A stretch of DNA of 63,233 nt from Candidatus Hydrogenedentota bacterium (GCA_045863335.1 BTVY01000044.1:1-63233); one strand, 5' to 3'; numbered from the stretch's first letter, positions 5,141-43,244 are shown. Translations and numbers: made by a program. Notes: generated by a model not told the origin, from the sequence alone.

Positions 5141-5572
5141 CTACACGCCTTCGACCGTCATGGTCGTGACGCGCCAGACGCCGTCGGCTTCTTTCGTCAG
5201 CGTGAAACCAAGCGTGGCGCTGCCGAAGGAGGCCATCAATTCGACGGGATAGACACTCGCTGTGTCGCCATCCACCTTTGTCTCGGCCGTTTCCAGCGCG
5301 ACCTTCGCGCTGTCCAGCGTGCCATCGTTGAAGGCGCCGCTCAGGAAACTGACCATCTGATCCTTGTTGCCGTACTCGTAGTGACTGAACTCATCGGAGA
5401 TCGCCATCTCAATCAAATCGACGTTCTTGTCCTCCATGCCGGCTTTCCAGTTGGTCAAGGTGGACGTAATGAGTTCCTCGTCAGACGGCCCCTTGGCGCC
5501 GGTGGCGCACCCGCCAACCAACACCGAAATCGCGAATGCAGCACACACCGTGAGAATTGCAGTTTTGCGCAC
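5141..5572 (-). CDS. Lipoprotein, NTF2/SnoaL-like fold
   Basis: GTG start with AGGA RBS; lipobox VGGC; C-terminal pattern FTLTKEADGVWRV. Confidence 0.7.
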   Translation of the reverse strand: MRKTAILTVCAAFAISVLVGGCATGAKGPSDEELITSTLTNWKAGMEDKNVDLIEMAISDEFSHYEYGNKDQMVSFLSGAFNDGTLDSAKVALETAETKVDGDTASVYPVELMASFGSATLGFTLTKEADGVWRVTTMTVEGV

Positions 5573-5708
5573 GTTCCTATCCTCTCTTCCTTGCACTTGC
5601 CCCAAAGTCATTCCGAATCGTTCCGCATCAAAACGGAATTTGCCTTCATACTATACGTAGAGAGTAGGACCGTTGCAACTGGTTCTTTGCAACAGGGAGT
5701 GGGTGCGC

Positions 5709-6191
5709 TCAGCCAGTGACCAGGAAGTCGGAATACCGGTCCGGCACCCGGTTGGGTTTATACACCAGCACCGTCTTGGCTTCCGATGCTTCGTAGCGGA
5801 TCCCCGTGTCGTCTTCCTCTGTGCGGACGAGGTCCTTGCCGGGTAGACCGATCGTTTCGAGCAGATCTTCGGGGCTGGCGAATCCCCGCGTAAAGCCCGC
5901 AACCTCCCGGCAGAAACCGTCACTGGACATGACGAAGTCCAACCCCGTTATCGGTTCCGGCAAGGTCGCGGTTTCCATGCGGTACATGATGCGTCTGGGC
6001 GCCGCGGTGGCGGGGTCTTCTCCCTCTGCCGGGCCGCCGCACCAGCCCGTCGGAGAGCCGAGTATTTGAACGATCTCGTCCTCAGACTTGCCTAGGTATT
6101 GCACCATGTGATTCTTGGAATGGAACCCACATGAGGAGCACGCAAGTACCAGGCAAACGAGCGCAAACCAACCGAATAATCTCGTAACCAT
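5709..6191 (-). CDS. Hypothetical lipoprotein
   Basis: Hydrophobic N-terminus ending LACSSC; YLGKSEDEIVQILGSP (SmpA/BamE-like start). Confidence 0.6.
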   Translation of the reverse strand: MVTRLFGWFALVCLVLACSSCGFHSKNHMVQYLGKSEDEIVQILGSPTGWCGGPAEGEDPATAAPRRIMYRMETATLPEPITGLDFVMSSDGFCREVAGFTRGFASPEDLLETIGLPGKDLVRTEEDDTGIRYEASEAKTVLVYKPNRVPDRYSDFLVTG

Positions 6192-6586: not shown

Positions 6587-7006
6587 ATGATCGTTCGACC
6601 TTTTGAAGATGCCGATGAGGACGCCGTGATTGAACTGTGGTCGCGCTGCGGACTGCTCCGCCCGTGGAACGATCCCCGAAAAGACATCGCGCGCAAGATG
6701 AAAGTACAGCCAGAGTTGTTCCTCGTCGGTACCATCGACGGCAGAGTGGTCGCCACGGTGATGGCGGGGTATGATGGACACCGTGGGTGGGTGTATTACC
6801 TCGGCGTGGATCCGGGGTTCCGCCGGCGGGGGTATGCGCGCGGAATCATGAAAGAGGCGGAGCAGCGGTTGCGCGAATTGGGATGTCCAAAAGTGAACCT
6901 GCAGGTGCGGCGAGACAACCCCGACGCAGCCGCGTATTACGAACGCACTGGTTTCTCCGAAGAGGATCGAATGAGTTTCGGGAAGCGGATTGAACCGGAC
7001 AACTAG
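6587..7006 (+). CDS. GNAT family acetyltransferase (YpeA-like)
   Basis: GAGGAGG RBS; LLRPWNDPRKDI, GYDGHRGWVYYLGVDP, RRRGYA acetyl-CoA motif. Confidence 0.9.
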   Translation: MIVRPFEDADEDAVIELWSRCGLLRPWNDPRKDIARKMKVQPELFLVGTIDGRVVATVMAGYDGHRGWVYYLGVDPGFRRRGYARGIMKEAEQRLRELGCPKVNLQVRRDNPDAAAYYERTGFSEEDRMSFGKRIEPDN

Positions 7007-7026
7007 AGATTTGGAAGGAGAGGCAC

Positions 7027-8142
7027 ATGATACGAAATGGGGGAGTGAGAGCTGCAATTCTGACGACAGCTTTGTTCGCGCCGAGCATCGTTATCGCGGA
7101 CGAAGTGGAAGAGCCGTGGCGCGGGGTTCATGTCATGGCTTGGGGAATCGCGGGTGGTGAAGAGGGACTGCCCGCGCTCAAACGGGCGATCACGGAGGTC
7201 CTGGTTCCGCTCGGCGTGAATACCCTGGTCTATGAAGTCGGCTACAACTTCGAGTTTGAATCGCATCCGGACATGCAGTTCGACAAGATCGCGACGAAGG
7301 CGGCGGCGCGCGACCTGGCGGCCCACTGCCGCGCCAACGGCATCCGGCTCATCCCGCAGTTCAACTGTCTGGGCCATCAATCCTGGGCGAAACAGAATCT
7401 TGTTTTTCCCCTCGTAGCAAATCATCCGGAAATGGAAGAGGTCCCGGATGTGCCCGAATCGGAACGCCCTAAACTGCTGAAAAGCTGGTGCCCACTGCAT
7501 CCGGGCGTGAACGAGATTGTGTTCGACCTGCTCGACGAGATCGTCGAAGCCTTCGAAGCGGACGCGCTGCATGTGGGCATGGACGAAGTGCTCGTGATTG
7601 GAAGTCCGAAGTGTCCTCGCTGCGCGGGGAAGGACCCGGCCGAACTGTTTGCCAAGGCCGTGAACGATCTGCACGGCCACGTGGTCGAGCGGCGAGGCTG
7701 GACCATGCTGATGTGGGGTGACCGGCTCCTTGATGCGTCCGTGGAGAATATGGGCAACGGTTGGGAAGCCAGCGACAAGGGTACGGCCCCGGCCATTGAC
7801 CTTATCCCCACGGACATCGTAATCTGCGACTGGCACTACAGCGTCCAACCCGACTATCCGTCGGTGCGCTTGTTTCAAGAAAAGGGGTTCCGGGTCTGGT
7901 CTGCGAGCTACAAGAGTACCGAGGCGACCTTGGCATTGCTTGAATGTGCCCAACGCGACGCGACGGACCGGATGCTGGGCTATCTGGGCACTTCCTGGGT
8001 GCTGCAACCAGGATATTTTGCAGAGGCCTTGCTCGGTGAGGGTGAAGGCGATACGCAGGCGCGTAACGATCGCGCGATTCCGGCCGCCGCGGCGCTCAAG
8101 GCCGGAATGGAGCGTATGAATCAGTCCGCTATCGCGCGGTAA
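7027..8142 (+). CDS. Secreted GH20-like glycoside hydrolase (TIM barrel)
   Basis: Signal peptide; LIPQFNCLGH, catalytic-type HVGMDE, MWGD, DWHY. Confidence 0.8.
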   Translation: MIRNGGVRAAILTTALFAPSIVIADEVEEPWRGVHVMAWGIAGGEEGLPALKRAITEVLVPLGVNTLVYEVGYNFEFESHPDMQFDKIATKAAARDLAAHCRANGIRLIPQFNCLGHQSWAKQNLVFPLVANHPEMEEVPDVPESERPKLLKSWCPLHPGVNEIVFDLLDEIVEAFEADALHVGMDEVLVIGSPKCPRCAGKDPAELFAKAVNDLHGHVVERRGWTMLMWGDRLLDASVENMGNGWEASDKGTAPAIDLIPTDIVICDWHYSVQPDYPSVRLFQEKGFRVWSASYKSTEATLALLECAQRDATDRMLGYLGTSWVLQPGYFAEALLGEGEGDTQARNDRAIPAAAALKAGMERMNQSAIAR

Positions 8143-35010: not shown

Positions 35011-35520
35011 CTACAGCATCCGCCCCCATTCGACGATTTGCCACGTATTCCCAATCTTCTCCAGATAGACGTTCATCTGGCCTTGGAGGATGATGGGCGG
35101 GTTTTCATTGGTGTTGAAGGGTTCGGCCCGGGTTCCGAAGGTCTCTACTGCGCGCGCCTGATTCCCTTCGACGTAGACCTGCGGCTGGACCCGAGTGATC
35201 GTGATCTCTTTGTAGTCTCTGAACAAGTCGTTCAGATATCGTTGCATCGCGTTGTAATCCCGCCCTTCCGCATCGGCATAGGAGCGGGACACGTGGGCAA
35301 GCACCTTGTAGATCTTCCGCGATTGCATCCCCCGATGGACGTCGTTAAGCACTTCGACGACTTGCTCCTCGTCGCTCATCCGGGGACCGGTCAAGCCGGG
35401 TATCTCCGGGATCTCGACCGGAAGCTCCCGTCCACACCCCGCGCCCCCGAGGCCCGTCAACGCGAGTACTGCAAGTGCGACGCCCGCCAACCAGGGGGCG
35501 CGCTTTCGCCCAGCGGTCAT
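35011..35520 (-). CDS. Lipoprotein, NTF2-like
   Basis: Lipobox GAGC; C-terminal LEKIGNTWQI. Confidence 0.7.
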   Translation of the reverse strand: MTAGRKRAPWLAGVALAVLALTGLGGAGCGRELPVEIPEIPGLTGPRMSDEEQVVEVLNDVHRGMQSRKIYKVLAHVSRSYADAEGRDYNAMQRYLNDLFRDYKEITITRVQPQVYVEGNQARAVETFGTRAEPFNTNENPPIILQGQMNVYLEKIGNTWQIVEWGRML

Positions 35521-36044
35521 AGACTACCTTCTGGCGTAACCGTCAAAATGAGTTGACGTCCCTTCGTGATCCCCAAATCCCGCACCGTGACTTTCAGGCG
35601 TTTGTTCGCTTTGAGAAAGAGCAGATCGGCCCCATCCGCCTGGATAACGTTCTGCAGCTTCCAGTCCGCCGTCGGGCATTCCCGAATGTAGAATTGTGCC
35701 AGTTCGCTTACGGAAGCTTTAGTCGTGTATACCATGCGGCCAATCTGAATGCTCGCGTCTTCGTATACGAATGTCTTCTCGAAATCTTCCGTCACCCCCT
35801 GGGGCAGCGGGACATCCGCAAACCGTTGCGACGCCGACAAGGGAAGCCCCGGCTCTGGCGGCGGTACGTCGGACGCTGTCGGCGGGGCGGTGGCGCTGTC
35901 TTCCATCAATTCCGCGGGCGGCGGGGTGGAAGATTTCGCGAAGGGATTGCTCGTCTGACATCCGCAAACGAGCATCGTGGAAGCGAGGGACAAGCCCACG
36001 GCAAGAAGTTTGCCCCGAATCGGAAAACCAGCGCGTCGCTGCAT
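35517..36044 (-). CDS. Hypothetical lipoprotein
   Basis: Lipobox VCGC, Pro-rich linker, RFADVPLP; ATGA-coupled to the next gene. Confidence 0.7.
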   Translation of the reverse strand: MQRRAGFPIRGKLLAVGLSLASTMLVCGCQTSNPFAKSSTPPPAELMEDSATAPPTASDVPPPEPGLPLSASQRFADVPLPQGVTEDFEKTFVYEDASIQIGRMVYTTKASVSELAQFYIRECPTADWKLQNVIQADGADLLFLKANKRLKVTVRDLGITKGRQLILTVTPEGSL

Positions 36045-36214
36045 TTGGAGTCCCCTTTCAAAACCCGACCCCCGAAAGTTGGGACGCGGGGTGCTTTGCA
36101 TCATACTTTATCTGCAATTCTCTGGAAAAGTTCCTGAGGGCAGCGTCAACAATAGCGTGCCCTCCGCCCGCAATCAAGACAGGCCCCTCCCCAACGCGAC
36201 GGCAACTGTGGAAC

Positions 36215-37090
36215 TCAGGCCGGCACGGCGGCGATGTGCTCGACGTTCGCGTCAACCTCTTTCGGGTCGAGCACGCCAATAGTCATTGCGTCGACACACC
36301 CAAGGCCCAGTACGAACTTCAGCGATTCCGGGATGCGGTCCGCGGTCTCGCCCTCGCCGGCGATCTTCATGCCCAGAATGCCCTTGCCATTGTCGTGAGC
36401 CGTCTGCAACACGGCCGCCACTTCTTCCGGCGTGCCGTCCATCTTCACGCCAAAGGGGTTGATTCGCGCGAGCATCACGTCCACCCACTCCGACTCCGCC
36501 GCGACCTTCATCGCATCCAGATTGTGGCAGGAAACGCCGTGGGCGCGGATGTAGCCCTTCGCCTTGGCTTCCGCCATTTCGTCCATGCAGGCCTTCATCG
36601 TTTCCGTCCACCCGCCGTCCGTCATGCAATGGAGGAGGCAGATGTCCATATACGGGGTATCAAGTTCCTGGCGGAAACGCTCCAGGTCTGCCCGGATGAG
36701 GCTGGGCTCCCGGGCGACCGTCTTGGTCAGCAGCATGACCTCTTCCCGCTGCACGGTGTTCTTCATCGCCTCTTTCATGTAGTCATGCGCGCCGTACATA
36801 TCGGCGAGATCAAAATAGCGAACTCCCGAGGCATACGCGTGTTCAATCAGCGATACAAACGCCTCGCGGCCTTGTCGGTTCTGCGCCGAACTCCCGTTCC
36901 ACGCCTTCGTGCCCGTGCCCATGCCTAGCAAGGAACACTGGATGCCGGTCTTGCCTAGCGTTCGCTTGCCGGTGGCCGTAAACGGACCCGCCGCCCGTGC
37001 GGGCATGGACGTAAGCCCCGCCATCGCAAGGCCCGTCGCCACACAGCCCGCGGACCGCTTCATAAAGTCACGCCGATTTATCCATCGCAT
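36215..37090 (-). CDS. Tat-exported aldo/keto reductase
   Basis: NRRDFMK; LGKTG, DLADMYG, LLHC, GVSCH. Confidence 0.9.
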   Translation of the reverse strand: MRWINRRDFMKRSAGCVATGLAMAGLTSMPARAAGPFTATGKRTLGKTGIQCSLLGMGTGTKAWNGSSAQNRQGREAFVSLIEHAYASGVRYFDLADMYGAHDYMKEAMKNTVQREEVMLLTKTVAREPSLIRADLERFRQELDTPYMDICLLHCMTDGGWTETMKACMDEMAEAKAKGYIRAHGVSCHNLDAMKVAAESEWVDVMLARINPFGVKMDGTPEEVAAVLQTAHDNGKGILGMKIAGEGETADRIPESLKFVLGLGCVDAMTIGVLDPKEVDANVEHIAAVPA

Positions 37091-37185
37091 AACCAAGACC
37101 TCCGATTTTTCGCCGGAGTCATTGTACACCACGGCCGCGCGAAGGCAAAGGACCGGCAAATTCAGCCCGCGTAACCAAAGTTCTA

Positions 37186-37299
37186 TGGAGTGCGAGGGCT
37201 TGCCCTCGCCGATTATAAAGTGTCACTGGTCCGCAACGCAGAAGGATTGGCAATGGCGTGCGATCGAACCAAATAGCGAGGGCAAGCCCTCGCACTCCA
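37186..37299. repeat. REPIN-like element (24-bp perfect inverted repeats)
   Basis: TGGAGTGCGAGGGCTTGCCCTCGC (37186-37209) and its exact reverse complement (37276-37299); each arm contains an internal hairpin. Confidence 0.8.
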
Positions 37300-37343
37300 A
37301 AGGCGCCAAACCGGCCTCGTGAATGCCATAAATAACACACCCA

Positions 37344-37373
37344 TTGACAGAATGTGTGATGCCGTGGTAGTGT
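37344..37373 (+). promoter_or_regulatory. Candidate sigma70 promoter for the peptidase/peptide locus
   Basis: TTGACA (37344), 18-nt spacer with TG extension, TAGTGT. Confidence 0.45.
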
Positions 37374-37518
37374 TCCCCTGTCACTTGAATCGGGAGTCCG
37401 CATGCAGTAGGGTTGTAAGTCAAATGACCAAACTGGGAAAAAGGGGAAATCGAAATGAGAATAATGGCGTTCAAGGGGGGGGCATGGCAATTATCTAGTC
37501 CGGTGCGCCCTCGCTGGA

Positions 37519-39228
37519 ATGGGCGTGCTCACGCTCCTGTCGCCGGTTTCGGCTGGTGAATTGGAGCCCGCAGACGCGATGATCGCGTCATCACTTATCG
37601 AAAGCATGGGCGGGCTCCCCGCGGACGAGTCGCCACGGGTATCGGTGGACGAGCGAGGCGTGGTAACCCACGTGGCCGCTCCGCGAGGCCGGTCCATGGC
37701 CGTCGCGGGCGTGTCGCCGGAGGACGGAAAAGAGCAGCGGGCCCTGGCCTTCGTCGAAACCCACGCCCAAGCGCTGGGCATCGCCAGCGGCCGCGTTGGA
37801 CTCAAGGTCCACGCCATCTCCACTACGCCGGAACGGTCCTATGTCCGCGTCCGGCAGCAGTATGACGGAATCCCCGTCCACGGCGCGGAGATCGTCATGC
37901 AACTCCAGCCCGAAGGAACCGTCAAATCCTTCCTGTCCGACATCATGACCGATACCGCCGCGTTCGACAGCGACCCGTCCGCCACGGTGCCCGGTCTGGA
38001 CCGGCCCGCCGCGTCCGAATTTGCACGTGCTGCGGCAAACCGGCTCCTGGAAAAGGCCCGGGAAGACTACGAAGCCGACATCGCCGACGCCCTCGAATCC
38101 GGCGAGATCGACGCCGAAACCGCGCAAGAACACCTCGCCCGCGCCAACGCGTCGGTGGTCGAGTTCTCCGACGAGGGGCAAGTTCTCATTTACGCGCCCC
38201 ACGTGATCGGCGCCCCCGGAGAAAACGCGTTGGTATGGGCCTTCAAAGTCCGCGACACGGAAGGGATTATGAGCCCAGTCCAGGTGTTCGTAGCCGCCGA
38301 TACTGGCGAACTTACTCACGTCAACCCGCTGGCCGCGCATGCCATCAACCGGCGCTTGTACGACAACAAGTTGGACGGCGATCCGGGCATACCTTACGCA
38401 ACGCTGCGCCGCACGGAAGCCAGCGGTCCTGTGACCATTTTTCAGACAATCCATTTCGTCGATTTCAATGCCCATTGGGACATCCTGGGATATACATACG
38501 ACTACTTCAATGACAATCACGCCTGGGATGCCATGGATGGTGTCGGAGGTACGATTTACTCGTACATGCGATGGCAACTCGAACCTAATGCGTTCTATTC
38601 GTTCGACGATGATCTTATGAAGTTCGGGACCAACGGGTTCGCAGTTTCGGATGATTTGGTTGGTCACGAATTTACTCATGGTGTTCTTTGGCATATCGCG
38701 GAACTCAGCTACGTATTGGAATCTGGGACTCTGCACGAAACCCTTGCCGATATGTGGGGTGAATTCGTGGATTGGTCGTGCCCTGTATTGGGGAATGACC
38801 AAGCTGCCAAGAAGTGGAAGGTGGGTGAGACGACCGCCACGGGTGTCTTCCGGAATATGAAGAATCCGCCAGCCAAGGATCATCCTGACAGATATCAGGG
38901 GACATATTGGTATTTCTTCCCGTCTGGACCGTTAACCGACGAGGAGTGGTGGGAAGCCAATGACATCTTTGTGCACACGAATAGCGGCGTAGGCAACAAG
39001 CTCGCCTACTTGCTAACCGATGGCGATACTTTCAACGGAGAAACGATCAACGGTATGGGTGAAACAGTAGTTCGAAACCTCTACTGGGAAGCCGTTCAGT
39101 TGATGCCGACTAATCTTGGGTACCACGACTTTTTCCAATTGCTTCTGGATGCGGCAGACAATCTCGGCATGACCACAGCTCAAATCAACAATATCCAGAG
39201 CGCAGGTGCGGCAGTTGCAATTGACTAG
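37519..39228 (+). CDS. M4 (thermolysin-family) zinc metallopeptidase with FTP/PepSY-type propeptide
   Basis: VRVRQQYDGIPVHGA (FTP), VFVAADTG (PepSY), NAFY, HEFTH, ESGTLHE..AD, VHTNSG..NK; the true start is probably 37455, across a G8 frameshift. Confidence 0.92.
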   Translation: MGVLTLLSPVSAGELEPADAMIASSLIESMGGLPADESPRVSVDERGVVTHVAAPRGRSMAVAGVSPEDGKEQRALAFVETHAQALGIASGRVGLKVHAISTTPERSYVRVRQQYDGIPVHGAEIVMQLQPEGTVKSFLSDIMTDTAAFDSDPSATVPGLDRPAASEFARAAANRLLEKAREDYEADIADALESGEIDAETAQEHLARANASVVEFSDEGQVLIYAPHVIGAPGENALVWAFKVRDTEGIMSPVQVFVAADTGELTHVNPLAAHAINRRLYDNKLDGDPGIPYATLRRTEASGPVTIFQTIHFVDFNAHWDILGYTYDYFNDNHAWDAMDGVGGTIYSYMRWQLEPNAFYSFDDDLMKFGTNGFAVSDDLVGHEFTHGVLWHIAELSYVLESGTLHETLADMWGEFVDWSCPVLGNDQAAKKWKVGETTATGVFRNMKNPPAKDHPDRYQGTYWYFFPSGPLTDEEWWEANDIFVHTNSGVGNKLAYLLTDGDTFNGETINGMGETVVRNLYWEAVQLMPTNLGYHDFFQLLLDAADNLGMTTAQINNIQSAGAAVAID

Positions 39229-39307: not shown

Positions 39308-39493
39308 ATGAACAGAATCAGTGCTGTAACTCGTGAACCAGTAGCATCACACCCCATCTTGGCTGCATCGGCGCTGCCACGATCGGACTGGGGCCGCTAC
39401 AAGGATTGCGTAAACGCGCAGAGTACGCTGAGCGGCAAGAAGGGATGCCTGAACGAATACCTCGACGATTTGGCCGAGGACAAGAATCCGTAG
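39308..39493 (+). CDS. Array peptide 1 (61 aa, leader + C-x12-C core)
   Basis: MNRISAVTREPVASHPILAASALPRSDWGRYKDCVNAQSTLSGKKGCLNEYLDDLAEDKNP; GGGAG RBS. Confidence 0.85.
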   Translation: MNRISAVTREPVASHPILAASALPRSDWGRYKDCVNAQSTLSGKKGCLNEYLDDLAEDKNP

Positions 39494-39580
39494 TGGGCCA
39501 TTCCGCCAAAACGGTTGACTTGGATTTGTATTGTTGAGGTAAATCGCTTTCCGGGCAGTTTGGGACCAAAGGGGAGAAAT

Positions 39581-39754
39581 ATGCCTAAGATTCACGCGAT
39601 GACCCGAGAGCCACGTTTGAGATGCTCCGCGCCGGCGAGCGCCTTGCTTCCACAGTCAGACCATGAGCGCTTCAAACTGTGTCTCACGGAGCAAACGTCG
39701 CTGGCCGGAAAGAAGGAATGCTTCGATGAATACCAGATGACGAAGGAGGAATAG
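39581..39754 (+). CDS. Array peptide 2 (57 aa)
   Basis: MPKIHAMTREPRLRCSAPASALLPQSDHERFKLCLTEQTSLAGKKECFDEYQMTKEE; GGGGAG RBS. Confidence 0.85.
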   Translation: MPKIHAMTREPRLRCSAPASALLPQSDHERFKLCLTEQTSLAGKKECFDEYQMTKEE

Positions 39755-39820
39755 AGCGCGCTACTTTCTTCGCTTTGAGGACGAGGATGGCAATCACGGT
39801 CGAAAGTGGGAGTATCAGAA

Positions 39821-40003
39821 ATGCGGAGATTCAATCGAGTGAATCATTTCTCGTTAGTGACCCTTCCGAGGCCCGCTGAAGTGATCTGGCTAGGGAATGC
39901 CGTCACCCATTTCAAGGAATGTCACTCGCATCAAACCACGGTCAGCGGGAAGAAGGAATGCTACGAGACCTATCAGTCAGAGAAATCCGAGAAACAACAA
40001 TAG
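39821..40003 (+). CDS. Array peptide 3 (60 aa)
   Basis: MRRFNRVNHFSLVTLPRPAEVIWLGNAVTHFKECHSHQTTVSGKKECYETYQSEKSEKQQ; GGGAG RBS. Confidence 0.85.
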   Translation: MRRFNRVNHFSLVTLPRPAEVIWLGNAVTHFKECHSHQTTVSGKKECYETYQSEKSEKQQ

Positions 40004-40078
40004 TGCCTTGTGCGCCCGTTTTTCCAAAGCTGAATTCACAGAGCGGACACCGGCGGCAAATTTCGAGAGGTACCCTGA

Positions 40079-40267
40079 ATGTGTAGAATCCGGACGATTG
40101 GCAGACAACGGAAGATGGCGACGCGCGCGTTTCCCCGAGCTGCATTTCGGGTGACTGCGCCGTGGGAGGAGTACAAGGCCTGCGTGGTCCAGGAGAAAGG
40201 TTCACCTGAGGGTAAGAAGGCTTGTTACGAGGCCTTTCGGGAGTCGGCCGCCAGCGAGGAAGAGTAA
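40079..40267 (+). CDS. Array peptide 4 (62 aa, C-x13-C)
   Basis: MCRIRTIGRQRKMATRAFPRAAFRVTAPWEEYKACVVQEKGSPEGKKACYEAFRESAASEEE; GAGG RBS. Confidence 0.8.
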   Translation: MCRIRTIGRQRKMATRAFPRAAFRVTAPWEEYKACVVQEKGSPEGKKACYEAFRESAASEEE

Positions 40268-40370
40268 GCCGCACGCCCGGTGAATCAGTGGCGCAGAATT
40301 CGCGGTGACTCCAATCGACGCCAAGTGCCTTGGCGCTGATTACAGGCCGTGAGTACTAAGGCGTCCGTGA

Positions 40371-40404
40371 TGCCGCCTCTCCGTTATCCGGCGGGGAGGC
40401 GGCA
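40371..40404 (+). promoter_or_regulatory. Conserved 5' hairpin, copy 1
   Basis: TGCCGCCTCTCCGT-tatccg-GCGGGGAGGCGGCA upstream of peptide 5. Confidence 0.75.
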
Positions 40405-40433
40405 ATCGGGCGAAACGTTGGGAGGGTATCATC

Positions 40434-40613
40434 GTGTCTGCTATCAAATGCGTGAGCCGGCGTCGCGACGGGAGGCGCCTCATTCCCGCGCGCGCTTTTC
40501 AAGCGGAGACGCCGAAGGAGCGTTACAAGGACTGCGAAAGCGAGCAGACGACCTTGGGCGGTCTCGCCTCGTGTTACCGCACGTTCTTGCAGGAGAAGGC
40601 CCAAGACAAGTAG
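40434..40613 (+). CDS. Array peptide 5 (59 aa; absent from the ORF track)
   Basis: Hand-translated from GTG: MSAIKCVSRRRDGRRLIPARAFQAETPKERYKDCESEQTTLGGLASCYRTFLQEKAQDK; GGAGG RBS. Confidence 0.85.
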   Translation: MSAIKCVSRRRDGRRLIPARAFQAETPKERYKDCESEQTTLGGLASCYRTFLQEKAQDK

Positions 40614-40692
40614 GACCGCGGATTGTGGGGGGTGTCGAGATTGGTTGAATCCACGGGTTGCGCGCATGGCGCAACGCGAAAGGGGTGTTTAC

Positions 40693-40878
40693 ATGTCGAG
40701 AATCCGATCCATAAGCCGAGTTCCCTTCAATGAAGAACGCATACCCGCCAGGGCTTATCTCCCGGAAACTGATTCGGAACGGTACAAGGCGTGTCTCGAA
40801 GAGCAGACCACGCTCGGCGGAAAAGTGGGTTGCTTCGTCGACTATATGGTTGCGCTTTCGGATAAGAGCCAACTGTAG
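40693..40878 (+). CDS. Array peptide 6 (61 aa)
   Basis: MSRIRSISRVPFNEERIPARAYLPETDSERYKACLEEQTTLGGKVGCFVDYMVALSDKSQL; AGGGG RBS. Confidence 0.85.
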   Translation: MSRIRSISRVPFNEERIPARAYLPETDSERYKACLEEQTTLGGKVGCFVDYMVALSDKSQL

Positions 40879-40915
40879 CCCTGCGGTCGCGAGATTCTGG
40901 AACAGATTCGCCGAG

Positions 40916-40947
40916 TGCCGCCTCTTCATCATAGGGGGGAGGTGGAA
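40916..40947 (+). promoter_or_regulatory. Conserved 5' hairpin, copy 2 (degenerate)
   Basis: TGCCGCCTCTTC-atcata-GGGGGGAGGTGGAA; pairing kept through G-U pairs. Confidence 0.65.
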
Positions 40948-40976
40948 ATCGGGCGAAACGGTGGAAGGGTATCATT

Positions 40977-41162
40977 GTGCCTGCTATCAGATGCGTGAGT
41001 CGTCGCCGTGACGGGAGACGCCACATCCCTGCCTCGGCGTTTACTGCTGAGACACCCCGTTTCCGCTATAAGATGTGTCTCACCGAGCAGAGTACGTTGA
41101 CCGGCAAGAAGGGATGTCTTAGTGACTATATTGATGAGTTGGCGGACGAAAAGAACCCGTAG
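40977..41162 (+). CDS. Array peptide 7 (61 aa)
   Basis: MPAIRCVSRRRDGRRHIPASAFTAETPRFRYKMCLTEQSTLTGKKGCLSDYIDELADEKNP. Confidence 0.85.
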   Translation: MPAIRCVSRRRDGRRHIPASAFTAETPRFRYKMCLTEQSTLTGKKGCLSDYIDELADEKNP

Positions 41163-41242
41163 CGGAGACCGTCCGTGATCGATTTCGTCGAGCAGGACCC
41201 ACGTTTCGGACAAGATAGCGTGTTAGGAGAAGGAGGGGGACC

Positions 41243-41425
41243 ATGCAACGAATCAAACGTATTAGCCGAGTGTCATTTCTGTCGACTTCGATACCAATGC
41301 CAGCGGTACGCGTAGTGGAACCGTGGGAATACTGGATAGCGTGCCTTCTCAAGCCGTCGGCATGGGTGACTGGCAAGAAGCAGTGCTACTGCGACTATCT
41401 TGAGAACCCTCCGTTGGAGGGATAG
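41243..41425 (+). CDS. Array peptide 8 (60 aa, C-x13-C)
   Basis: MQRIKRISRVSFLSTSIPMPAVRVVEPWEYWIACLLKPSAWVTGKKQCYCDYLENPPLEG; AGGAGG RBS. Confidence 0.8.
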   Translation: MQRIKRISRVSFLSTSIPMPAVRVVEPWEYWIACLLKPSAWVTGKKQCYCDYLENPPLEG

Positions 41426-41481
41426 TCACGCGAAGTTCCACATGAAAGCCGTTCCATTGCTTGCGGCATTGGGTTCCCGCG

Positions 41482-41519
41482 ATTGCTGCCTTTTCGTCAT
41501 CCGGCCGAGAGGCGGCAAT
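41482..41519 (+). promoter_or_regulatory. Conserved 5' hairpin, copy 3
   Basis: ATTGCTGCCTTTTCG...CGAGAGGCGGCAAT upstream of peptide 9. Confidence 0.7.
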
Positions 41520-41543
41520 GGCTAACTTTGGGAGGGTATCCTC

Positions 41544-41729
41544 GTGCCTACTATCAAATGCGTGAGTCGGCGTTGCGACGGGAGACGCCGCATCCCTGCC
41601 TCGGCCGTCTTGCCCGAGTCGCCGCAGAATCGTTACAAATCCTGTCTGAACGCACAGACGACGCTGAGCGGCAAGAAGGGTTGCCAGAGCGAATACCTCG
41701 ACGAACTATCCGAGGACAAGAATTCTTAG
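41544..41729 (+). CDS. Array peptide 9 (61 aa)
   Basis: MPTIKCVSRRCDGRRRIPASAVLPESPQNRYKSCLNAQTTLSGKKGCQSEYLDELSEDKNS. Confidence 0.85.
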   Translation: MPTIKCVSRRCDGRRRIPASAVLPESPQNRYKSCLNAQTTLSGKKGCQSEYLDELSEDKNS

Positions 41730-41808
41730 TGGAGACTGACCGCGATCGATCTAGTTGAGCGAGACCCGCGTTTCGGTCGAGAAATTCCGTTAGGAGACGG
41801 TGGGGACC

Positions 41809-41991
41809 ATGCAAAGAATGAAGCGTATTACCCGGGTTCCGTATTCGACAAATCGAATTCCCGCGATCGCTTCCTGGGAAGGAAACGCGCTCTCACACTT
41901 CCAGACTTGCCACTTCTATGCGACGACGAAGAGCGAGAAGAAAGACTGTTACGAGACTTTTCAGTCGGAAAAGGCCGCTGAAAAGCAATAG
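41809..41991 (+). CDS. Array peptide 10 (60 aa)
   Basis: MQRMKRITRVPYSTNRIPAIASWEGNALSHFQTCHFYATTKSEKKDCYETFQSEKAAEKQ. Confidence 0.85.
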   Translation: MQRMKRITRVPYSTNRIPAIASWEGNALSHFQTCHFYATTKSEKKDCYETFQSEKAAEKQ

Positions 41992-42144
41992 AGGATAGAC
42001 GATTGATGGGTTCGCATCTAACCGGCCGTTGCGGGGAGGACTAAGAGGCCGGCTACTACGGCAGCCTTAGCCCAATTGCGGAGAACGCGCTGAGGAATGG
42101 GTCCCCACACGGCAACTGGTCACGACGCGTCATTAAATCTCCGT

Positions 42145-42182
42145 ATTGCCGCCTCTCCGCCATCCGGCGGAGAGGCGGCAAT
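42145..42182 (+). promoter_or_regulatory. Conserved 5' hairpin, copy 4 (perfect 17-bp stem)
   Basis: ATTGCCGCCTCTCCGCC-ATCC-GGCGGAGAGGCGGCAAT. Confidence 0.8.
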
Positions 42183-42209
42183 CGGGCTAAAGCTTGGGAG
42201 GGTATCATC

Positions 42210-42395
42210 GTGCCTGCTATCAAATGTGTGAGCCGACGTAGCGACGGGAGACGCAGCATCCCTGCCTCGGCCGTCTTGCCCGAGTCGCCGCAGAATCGTT
42301 ACAAATCCTGTCTGAACGAGCAGACGACACTGAGCGGCAAGAAGGGATGCCTGAACGAATACCTCGACGAATTGGCCGAGGACAAGAATCCGTAG
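42210..42395 (+). CDS. Array peptide 11 (61 aa)
   Basis: MPAIKCVSRRSDGRRSIPASAVLPESPQNRYKSCLNEQTTLSGKKGCLNEYLDELAEDKNP. Confidence 0.85.
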   Translation: MPAIKCVSRRSDGRRSIPASAVLPESPQNRYKSCLNEQTTLSGKKGCLNEYLDELAEDKNP

Positions 42396-42478
42396 CGAAG
42401 GCTCTGCCTGAAGTGATTTCGTTGAGAGGAAATGCACGTTAGCCGAACCGGGGATTGTGAGATGAAAAGGAGGGGACC

Positions 42479-42661
42479 ATGCAGAGAATCAAACGCATTA
42501 GCCGGGTTCCGTATTCGACAAATCGAGTTCCCGCGATAGCTTTCTGGGAAGGAGACGCGCTCACGCGTTTTCAGACATGTCATTTCCATGCGACGACGAA
42601 GCGTGAGAAGAAAGACTGTTACGAAACTTTTCAGTCGGAAAAGACGGCAGAGAAGCAATAG
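42479..42661 (+). CDS. Array peptide 12 (60 aa)
   Basis: MQRIKRISRVPYSTNRVPAIAFWEGDALTRFQTCHFHATTKREKKDCYETFQSEKTAEKQ; AGGAGG RBS. Confidence 0.85.
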   Translation: MQRIKRISRVPYSTNRVPAIAFWEGDALTRFQTCHFHATTKREKKDCYETFQSEKTAEKQ

Positions 42662-42776
42662 TGGAAAGTGGAAAGAGTTTAGCCGATTGGCGCAGAGTGT
42701 TCTTCAAGCACAATCCGGCATCCCCATGCCAATCGGCTGAGTTGTTGCGAATGTCTACGATTGCTGAGTATCTCAA

Positions 42777-43244
42777 GTGAATAAGCACATGCGAATCTAT
42801 GTGGACACATCAGTCGTCGGGGGATGTCTTGACGATGAATTCCGCGACGGTTCTGTTCAACTTTTTGACCGTTTTCGGCGTGGCGATGCAGTTGCCGTCT
42901 TATCCGATATTACGTTAGCGGAACTGGCTGGAGCCCCTCCTTCAGTGCAGGCGATAGTCGAGGGCTTGCCGGATTTTTCTGTGGAATACGTACGTCAGAG
43001 CAATGAGGCCGAAGAACTGGCGGACGCGTACATACTCGGAAAAGCCGTTCCTCGTCGCATGCGGTTAGATGCCCAACATATTGCAATAGCAACGGTTGCC
43101 CGTGTGGATGTGCTGGTCAGTTGGAACTTCAAGCATATCGTCAACTTGGATCGCATTCGGGCTTTCAATGCGGTCAATTCGGAATTGGGGTAGAATCAAT
43201 TGGAGATTCGGGCGCCGTTGGAGATCTGGAAAGATGAAGACTAA
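42777..43244 (+). pseudogene. PIN-domain protein with a premature TAG at 43191
   Basis: RIYVDTSVVGG, DAQHIAIAT, VSWNFKHIVN; after the TAG the frame continues NQLEIRAPLEIWKDED*, resembling the usual G-Y-x-x-LEIR-x-P-x-E ending. Confidence 0.7.

Follow-up and report, generated by a model that had tools for sequence, protein, structure and literature searches.

A basic leader, a P-A-x-A junction and a neighbouring M4 peptidase in a tandem array of two-cysteine peptide genes from a Hydrogenedentota bacterium

The subject of this analysis is a cassette of one protease gene and twelve small peptide genes in a 63,233-nucleotide stretch of DNA from Candidatus Hydrogenedentota bacterium (GCA_045863335.1, BTVY01000044.1:1-63233; hereafter, the window, to which coordinates without a label refer). 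The protease gene encodes a prepro-peptidase of the M4 (thermolysin) family. Directly downstream of it, twelve small open reading frames (ORFs) lie on the plus strand within positions 39308–42661, with products of 57–62 amino acids. Each is preceded by a Shine-Dalgarno-like purine run, and the start codon is ATG in eight and GTG in four. An earlier note on this DNA had proposed that the peptides carry a basic leader ending in P-A-x-A before a bulky hydrophobic residue, and that the adjacent M4 enzyme may be a dedicated leader peptidase. The cassette is real and undescribed; its features are listed in Table 1.

Table 1. Coordinates of the cassette features in the window (the arrow marks the putative leader/core junction; aa, amino acids)
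Feature	Position	Strand	Remarks
M4 (thermolysin-family) prepro-peptidase gene	37455–39228	+	ORF as assembled 37519–39228, 569 codons
Peptide gene 1	39308–39493	+	61 aa; leader end ...ILAASA, core LPRSDWGRYKDC...; family profile E 6.6e-25
Peptide gene 2	39581–39754	+	57 aa; ...APASA↓LLPQSD
Peptide gene 3	39821–40003	+	60 aa; ...RPAEV↓IWLGNA; C-H-S-H in core; spanned by RNA-library contigs
Peptide gene 4	40079–40267	+	62 aa; ...FPRAA↓FRVTAP
Peptide gene 5	40434–40613	+	59 aa; GTG start; ...IPARA↓FQAETP
Peptide gene 6	40693–40878	+	61 aa; ...IPARA↓YLPETD
Peptide gene 7	40977–41162	+	61 aa; GTG start; ...IPASA↓FTAETP
Peptide gene 8	41243–41425	+	60 aa; ...IPMPA↓VRVVEP
Peptide gene 9	41544–41729	+	61 aa; GTG start; ...IPASA↓VLPESP
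Peptide gene 10	41809–41991	+	60 aa; ...IPAIA↓SWEGNA
Peptide gene 11	42210–42395	+	61 aa; GTG start; ...IPASA↓VLPESP; copy used for structure model
Peptide gene 12	42479–42661	+	60 aa; ...VPAIA↓FWEGDA
38-nt G+C-rich palindrome	42145–42182	+	further copies 40369–40406, 41482–41519; degenerate copy 40916–40941

The twelve ORFs are genuine genes, and leader and core are both under purifying selection. Pooling 51 moderately diverged pairs gives a ratio of nonsynonymous to synonymous substitution (dN/dS) of 0.47 in the leader and 0.40 in the core. In close orthologue pairs the proportion of nonsynonymous differences (pN) lies far below that of synonymous ones (pS) in both parts alike, as in gene 6 against its orthologue in genome G026 (leader pS 0.38, pN 0.04; core pS 0.41, pN 0.03). 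The DNA here is repetitive and ORFs are seen on the reverse strand too, so that the frames might conceivably have arisen by chance within a DNA repeat. Such an origin is given practically no weight. It is at odds with the excess of pS over pN and with the Shine-Dalgarno-like runs, and also with the homologues known from four further species and with cysteines and motifs that stay invariant although the copies share just 25–59% protein identity; the alignment, the homologues and the pN/pS values together refute it.

Metatranscriptome contigs from two wastewater libraries (X10 and X12) cover positions 37459–38229 and 39418–40891, corresponding to the 5' half of the M4 gene and peptide genes 1–6, with the intergenic gaps bridged. 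The flank at 35500–37300 is absent from these RNA contigs, yet is covered by a DNA run of the same study. This coverage is a weak hint at transcription of the array, since the evidence consists of contigs and not of reads. A scan for promoters and terminators returned nothing on the plus strand, and the sites were no more numerous than in shuffled sequence.

The gene adjoining the array encodes, as the earlier note had it, an M4 peptidase, and this is intact. The ORF matches the Pfam families FTP (E 9.6e-8; 32.2 bits against a cut-off of 21), Peptidase_M4 (1.3e-8; 35.8 against 22.4) and Peptidase_M4_C (3.7e-23; 82.6 against 24.4). The best matches among solved structures range from 3e-18 to 1e-14 and include bacillolysin (2.9e-18) and thermolysin (9e-15). 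The HExxH motif, the glutamate ligand and the catalytic His and Asp are kept, with H383, E384, H387, E407, D482 and H486 invariant in four orthologues and 35 M4 sequences of the phylum. Orthologues in genomes G025 and G026 start with classical Sec signal peptides, which end in SPVSA, LPAAA and LSAAA. In the window itself, the ATG at 37455 is one base out of frame owing to a run of eight G residues at 37475–37482; related-strain contigs from the X12 RNA library and the X3 DNA run are one base shorter at 37475, which places this ATG in frame. The G8 run may stem from faulty assembly, or it may be a natural switch that turns protease export on and off by strand slippage. The enzyme is thus predicted to be a Sec-secreted zymogen, and as a secreted protein it would meet the peptides only outside the cytoplasm.

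Alignment of the twelve peptides reveals the initiating Met and two Cys residues as common to all copies, with the consensus MxRIKxVSRxxxxxxxIPAxA followed by the core. Two conserved blocks make up the leader: M-x-R-I-K/R-x-V/I-S-R-V/I-P stands close to its start, and I/R/L-P-A-x-A closes it. Across the family it is 14–24 residues long (mostly 21) with a median net charge of +4. The junction was placed where leader conservation stops and is taken as the putative cleavage site. Positioned in this way, the junctions agree with those given in the earlier note: AASA↓L, PASA↓L, PAEV↓I, PRAA↓F, PARA↓F, PARA↓Y, PASA↓F, PMPA↓V, PASA↓V, PAIA↓S, PASA↓V and PAIA↓F. A bulky hydrophobic residue (L, I, F, Y or V) therefore aligns to the putative P1' position in 11 of 12 copies, as had been claimed; the junction of copy 1 is ambiguous, shifting by one residue in a second MAFFT run (LAAS↓ALPR).

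The pattern was extended to 55 unique family members, gathered from two protein databases and four related genomes in addition to the window. Pro occupies P4 in 52 of the 55, Ala occupies P3 in 47 and P1 in 48, and a bulky hydrophobic residue (LIVFMYW) stands at P1' in 39 (F17, V10, I7, L2, Y2, M1), against a background fraction of 0.258 in the peptides. Members with Ala at P1' mostly continue with Phe or Leu. As the members are related, the P1' position was also put to a binomial test in which each cluster of related cores had a single vote. With clustering at 70% identity, hydrophobic residues form the majority in 16 of the 22 clusters (5e-6), at 60% in 8 of 12 (0.0035) and at 50% in 3 of 5 (0.11). 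The enrichment is real, yet a bias rather than a rule. As a side observation that serves as a lead only, the M4 orthologues carry the sequence N-P-L-A-A-x-A↓I-N-R-R near residues 270–278, which resembles the I-P-A-x-A↓hydrophobic junction of the peptides.

Like Sec signal peptides, the leaders have a basic N-terminus and a Pro...A-x-A c-region ahead of the mature part, but they lack the hydrophobic core (h-region), and the claim that they are not of the Sec type holds on these measures. The best nine-residue Kyte-Doolittle mean within residues 1–30 has a median of 0.96 (0.28–1.74, n=45), compared to 2.1–2.5 for the three M4 orthologues' signal peptides; the longest stretch without any charged or amide residue has a median length of 7 residues in the leaders versus 18–23 in those signal peptides. 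Some copies contain SRRR or GRR, none of them with the F-L-K context or the h-region of a Tat signal. The absence of a double-glycine leader, as noted earlier, was likewise borne out: Gly is found at P1 in one of 55 members, with Gln at P2, no leader ends in Gly-Gly, and the eight commonest -2/-1 pairs, which account for 44 of the 55, have no Gly at -2.

The same c-region raises the question of whether type I signal peptidase, or some other protease with a housekeeping role, cuts the leader, with the M4 enzyme trimming, activating or destroying the peptides or merely being co-regulated with them. The frequent Ala at P3 and P1 with Pro at -4 is a textbook signal-peptide c-region, the M4 orthologues' own signal peptides close in much the same manner, and arrays persist without an intact M4 gene in cis. 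There was also a precedent in AgrD, whose non-Sec amphipathic leader was attributed to the signal peptidase SpsB. A 2023 review of leader-removing proteases assigns the AgrD leader step to the membrane metalloprotease MroQ (PMC10885120). Signal peptidase moreover needs a membrane-spanning h-region to present its substrate, which these leaders lack, and its action would explain neither the P1' hydrophobic bias nor the exclusive occurrence of the M4 subfamily next to the peptides (see below). Cleavage by such a general protease is rated as unlikely.

The earlier note had further envisaged the leader as an undescribed export or recognition signal and suggested looking for it on proteins with unrelated cores. 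None turned up in the 6.75 Mb genome, where a leader-only hidden Markov model (HMM) finds just the twelve array genes, which rank first (E 2e-7 to 0.12) ahead of a next frame at E 0.39, although a 21-residue profile has limited power. A loose regular expression for the leader likewise found no other cargo in the genome, and the twelve genes are the sole family members there. Since the leader-only HMM finds no further genes, the leader appears not to be a general secretion tag; it seems private to the peptide family, as are the leaders of bacteriocins and of RiPPs (ribosomally synthesised peptides that are modified post-translationally).

The core comprises about 39 residues with a median net charge of -1 and the two invariant Cys residues 12–13 positions apart; the loop between them, T-T-L-x-G-K-K-x-C, is its best-conserved part, and the tails are variable. 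An AlphaFold2 model of peptide 11, calculated from a 43-sequence alignment, has coil at residues 1–26 and helices at 27–37 and 41–59 (mean predicted local distance difference test score 75), with one Cys in each helix. The core is accordingly modelled as a helix-loop-helix that follows a disordered leader, and the Cys pair probably staples the hairpin through a disulfide outside the cytoplasm. Such a staple, if present, would imply a destination outside the cytoplasm. The top Foldseek entries are plant alpha-hairpinins (vicilin-buried peptides, Luffin P1), which, like the mature peptides as proposed here, are helix-loop-helix peptides of about 40 residues released from a larger precursor, but their E-values of 1.6–9 are not significant; alpha-hairpinins have two disulfides (CX3C...CX3C), whereas the single invariant Cys pair found here speaks against membership of that group. 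Three core types (39821–40003, 41809–41991 and 42479–42661) have C-H-x-H/Y right after the first Cys, a feature that the other types lack; together with the second Cys it could make a metal site in those three.

Leader and core behave as modules. The core beginning IQAETPKERYK is found behind three different leader types, and conversely the leader type AIKCVSRRxDGRR, which always has a GTG start and the upstream 38-nt palindrome, is joined to three core types in this genome.

These properties bear on the possibility that the peptides are not processed at all, serving instead as small cytoplasmic inhibitors, chaperones or safety catches for the M4 precursor. Staphostatins and Spi are encoded beside secreted proteases and have no signal peptides, so that the array resembles them in placing small signal-less proteins directly downstream of a secreted protease gene; they are, on the other hand, single genes with unrelated folds that target cysteine proteases, in place of the twelve-gene diversifying array seen here. 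A cytoplasmic partner would account for the absence of an export signal and, in the scanned loci, of a transporter, as well as for the gene position and the strong conservation of the inter-Cys loop. It would be hard to reconcile with twelve diverged paralogues for one enzyme, with arrays that have no M4 gene, with the shuffling of leaders and cores as modules and with two invariant Cys suited to a disulfide, and the likeness to alpha-hairpinin inhibitors lends it nothing at E > 1. Uncleaved partners are judged improbable, to the same degree as the signal peptidase alternative.

The genomic linkage between the enzyme and the peptides is close. Of the six loci whose upstream sequence is known, four have an intact M4 orthologue immediately upstream of the peptide genes, at 65–84% identity; these are the window, G026:C154, G025:C9 and G025:C18 (84, 72 and 66% for the three outside the window). 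Only genomes that bear the peptides were found to have the M4 subfamily (identity of 65% or more); the next-best M4 proteins in 135 genomes of the phylum reach no more than 44% identity and are mostly about 1100–1400 residues long. No family peptide was detected within about 1.5 kb of 27 distant M4 loci of the phylum (best E 0.29), and when metagenomes were scanned with the M4 alignment, the matches were all remote M4 proteins (31–34% identity) with no peptide genes beside them. Genome G022, which is 81% complete, has neither the peptides nor the M4 orthologue. Given the shared loci, the exclusive subfamily and the joint absence in G022, the M4 subfamily and the peptides travel together. Apart from the M4 gene, the neighbours in the scanned flanks differ from locus to locus; no transporter and no known peptide-modifying enzyme was found among 24 neighbouring proteins scanned, and the lack of a known maturase among them speaks against a RiPP assignment, though a maturase gene might lie elsewhere in the genome.

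Several observations concern remnants of the M4 gene and the sequence upstream of it. Fragments corresponding to its last 90–125 codons lie among peptide genes in locus L021 (G023:C243), at 5479–5778 and 6842–7123, and at G025:C9:115336–115698; these 3'-end fragments were copied together with peptide genes in both genomes. In locus L023 (G026:C334), positions 1–133 are 81% identical to window positions 37320–37452, the sequence ahead of the M4 start codon, and the M4-less mini-array of this contig adjoins a flagellin gene. The stretch shared between the M4 gene and the mini-array looks like a common promoter or 5' region.

The peptide family itself is sparsely distributed. When 1.84 billion representative proteins were searched exhaustively with a profile, 19 small relatives emerged, all without annotation, along with two spurious repeat proteins. 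Pfam and NCBIfam scans assigned the peptides to no family (noise only, E at least 0.028), the ESM Atlas gave no usable match, and Foldseek with the peptide model found nothing in the PDB at E ≤ 0.001. Among 54 genomes of the taxonomic family, real matches are confined to the genus of the window (G000 and four of five other species), and four weak matches outside the genus (E about 0.002–0.008) fall in long or interrupted frames. Sequencing runs holding this DNA are sludge, wastewater and bioreactor metagenomes. On the strength of these searches, the family is very narrow and confined to a single genus, whose uncultured members live in sludge and wastewater.

The arrangement that we tentatively place first consists of two components, a Sec-secreted M4 zinc endopeptidase zymogen and a diversifying set of tandem genes whose products look like peptide precursors. 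Export of the peptides from the cytoplasm would depend on a pathway encoded outside the cassette, and the leader would then be cut off at the P-A-x-A↓hydrophobic junction or right beside it. M4 enzymes cut on the N-terminal side of Leu, Phe, Ile or Val (MEROPS), and because of this preference for a bulky hydrophobic P1' residue the co-encoded M4 enzyme would be the best candidate for the cut. The freed hairpin peptides may then act outside the cell, in the manner of bacteriocins or as signals. Removal of the leader at this junction, most likely by the linked M4 enzyme after export, is the favoured reading, held with reserve. Ranked below it are cleavage by signal peptidase I or another general protease and, level with that, uncleaved partners, followed by the signalling propeptides discussed below.

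A number of observations weigh against leader removal by the M4 enzyme. The main gap in the model of the earlier note is one of location: the enzyme is Sec-exported and the peptides have no recognisable export signal, so that enzyme and substrate are not obviously in one compartment, and no transporter is present in the scanned loci. The A-x-A motif with Pro at -4 fits the signal peptidase I motif equally well. P1' is other than bulky hydrophobic in 16 of the 55 members (A8, S4, H2, E1, C1), and in G026 the orthologue of copy 6 carries Glu at this position. Genome G023 (93% complete) has nine peptide genes, only two 3' M4 remnants and no full-length orthologue that could be found, while G026:C334 joins the M4 upstream region straight to two peptide genes with no M4 gene between. 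Finally, every genome of the genus has a large second M4 paralogue (about 1150 amino acids) that could act instead. At G000:C5:153836–156775 this second paralogue is an open frame of about 1140 amino acids, 41% identical over the catalytic domain, and M4 matches at or below its level occur in 85 of the 135 genomes of the phylum. Predicting a complex between peptide 11 and the M4 catalytic domain gave a score of 0.00, which was counted neither for nor against.

A more far-reaching form of the proposal is doubtful. In it, the basic, h-region-free leader would be a new export and maturation tag that follows neither the Sec, the Tat nor the double-glycine ATP-binding cassette (ABC) transporter route, the M4 enzyme would be its dedicated leader peptidase, and the disulfide-stapled hairpins would form a new secreted antimicrobial or signalling class in the phylum Hydrogenedentota.

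The peptides could alternatively be signalling propeptides of the PapR or Phr type, from which the M4 enzyme would free a short fragment away from P-A-x-A, for instance the variable N- or C-terminal tail of the core. Rap-Phr cassettes have many paralogues, as do the arrays described here, and the variable core tails would suit such a product. An M4-dependent precedent exists in the Bacillus cereus group, where the PapR propeptide needs the M4 neutral protease NprB in order to mature (PMC4147580). The pairing of a small exported peptide with a secreted thermolysin-family protease is common to that system, as described there, and to the cassette as proposed (PMC4147580). PapR is, for its part, encoded by a single gene paired with that of the regulator PlcR, has a putative Sec signal and yields a C-terminal heptapeptide; the cassette differs in its missing h-region and regulator, its 12 paralogues, the conserved P-A-x-A junction and a 39-residue two-Cys core. 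With no receptor or regulator gene linked in the scanned loci, no Sec signal in the peptides, and conservation that peaks in the helices and the Cys loop rather than in a short tail, a signalling propeptide is the least probable of these ways of using the peptides.

In its layout the cassette resembles a bacteriocin or RiPP locus. In such arrays, too, a conserved leader precedes a variable core and a protease is encoded beside it (LanP subtilisins and PCAT C39, or metalloproteases of families M1, M16, M61, M103, M50 and M79). The cassette differs from them in having no Gly-Gly site and, among the scanned neighbours, no modifying enzyme or transporter, and by its sequence it appears to fall outside the Sec, Tat, double-glycine and RiPP types alike. 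Other metalloprotease families are named in a 2023 review of leader-removing proteases, and the word 'thermolysin' is absent from the available part of its text (PMC10885120). Among the titles and abstracts listed by full-text searches for M4 or thermolysin-like enzymes combined with leader and precursor peptides, none contained such a pairing.

If the M4 enzyme is indeed the leader peptidase, the thermolysin family would join the proteases that mature ribosomal peptides, and one protease with one short leader would make a compact, portable, two-part release system. It would also raise the question of how a peptide without a hydrophobic signal leaves the cell. The immediate reach is modest, because the family is unannotated and very narrow (about 19 clusters) and its hosts are uncultured.

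The array also has internal repeats. The 38-nt palindromes were defined from the repeat families D6 and D9 and the inverted pairs I1, I2 and I4. Perfect or near-perfect and with no T tract, they precede by about 30 nt each of the four peptide genes that start with GTG, and no others. A 12-mer core of the palindrome has four matches in the genome, three in the array (at two sites) and one elsewhere (C28:23906), a count that rules out a genome-wide repetitive extragenic palindromic (REP) element. Rfam returned for it only a sub-threshold microRNA match of 22 bits, compared to a gathering score of 66. The palindrome may be a site of mRNA processing or stability, or a recombination hotspot. Strain deletions end beside the palindromes: related-strain contigs join 40891 to 42160 and 41248 to 42485, skipping 1268 and 1236 bases between homologous points, and the number of peptide genes therefore varies among strains. 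Genes 9–10 and 11–12 represent a recent two-gene duplication with 85–90% identical DNA. The array grows and shrinks by recombination between repeated leader and upstream modules.

At the downstream edge of the array (42661–43193), an ORF of 138 amino acids gives weak PIN-domain matches that lie under the cut-offs (E 0.07–0.14), and its start is overlapped by an ORF of 39 codons. The two ORFs are conserved beside the array in genome G024 and may be a VapBC-like pair.

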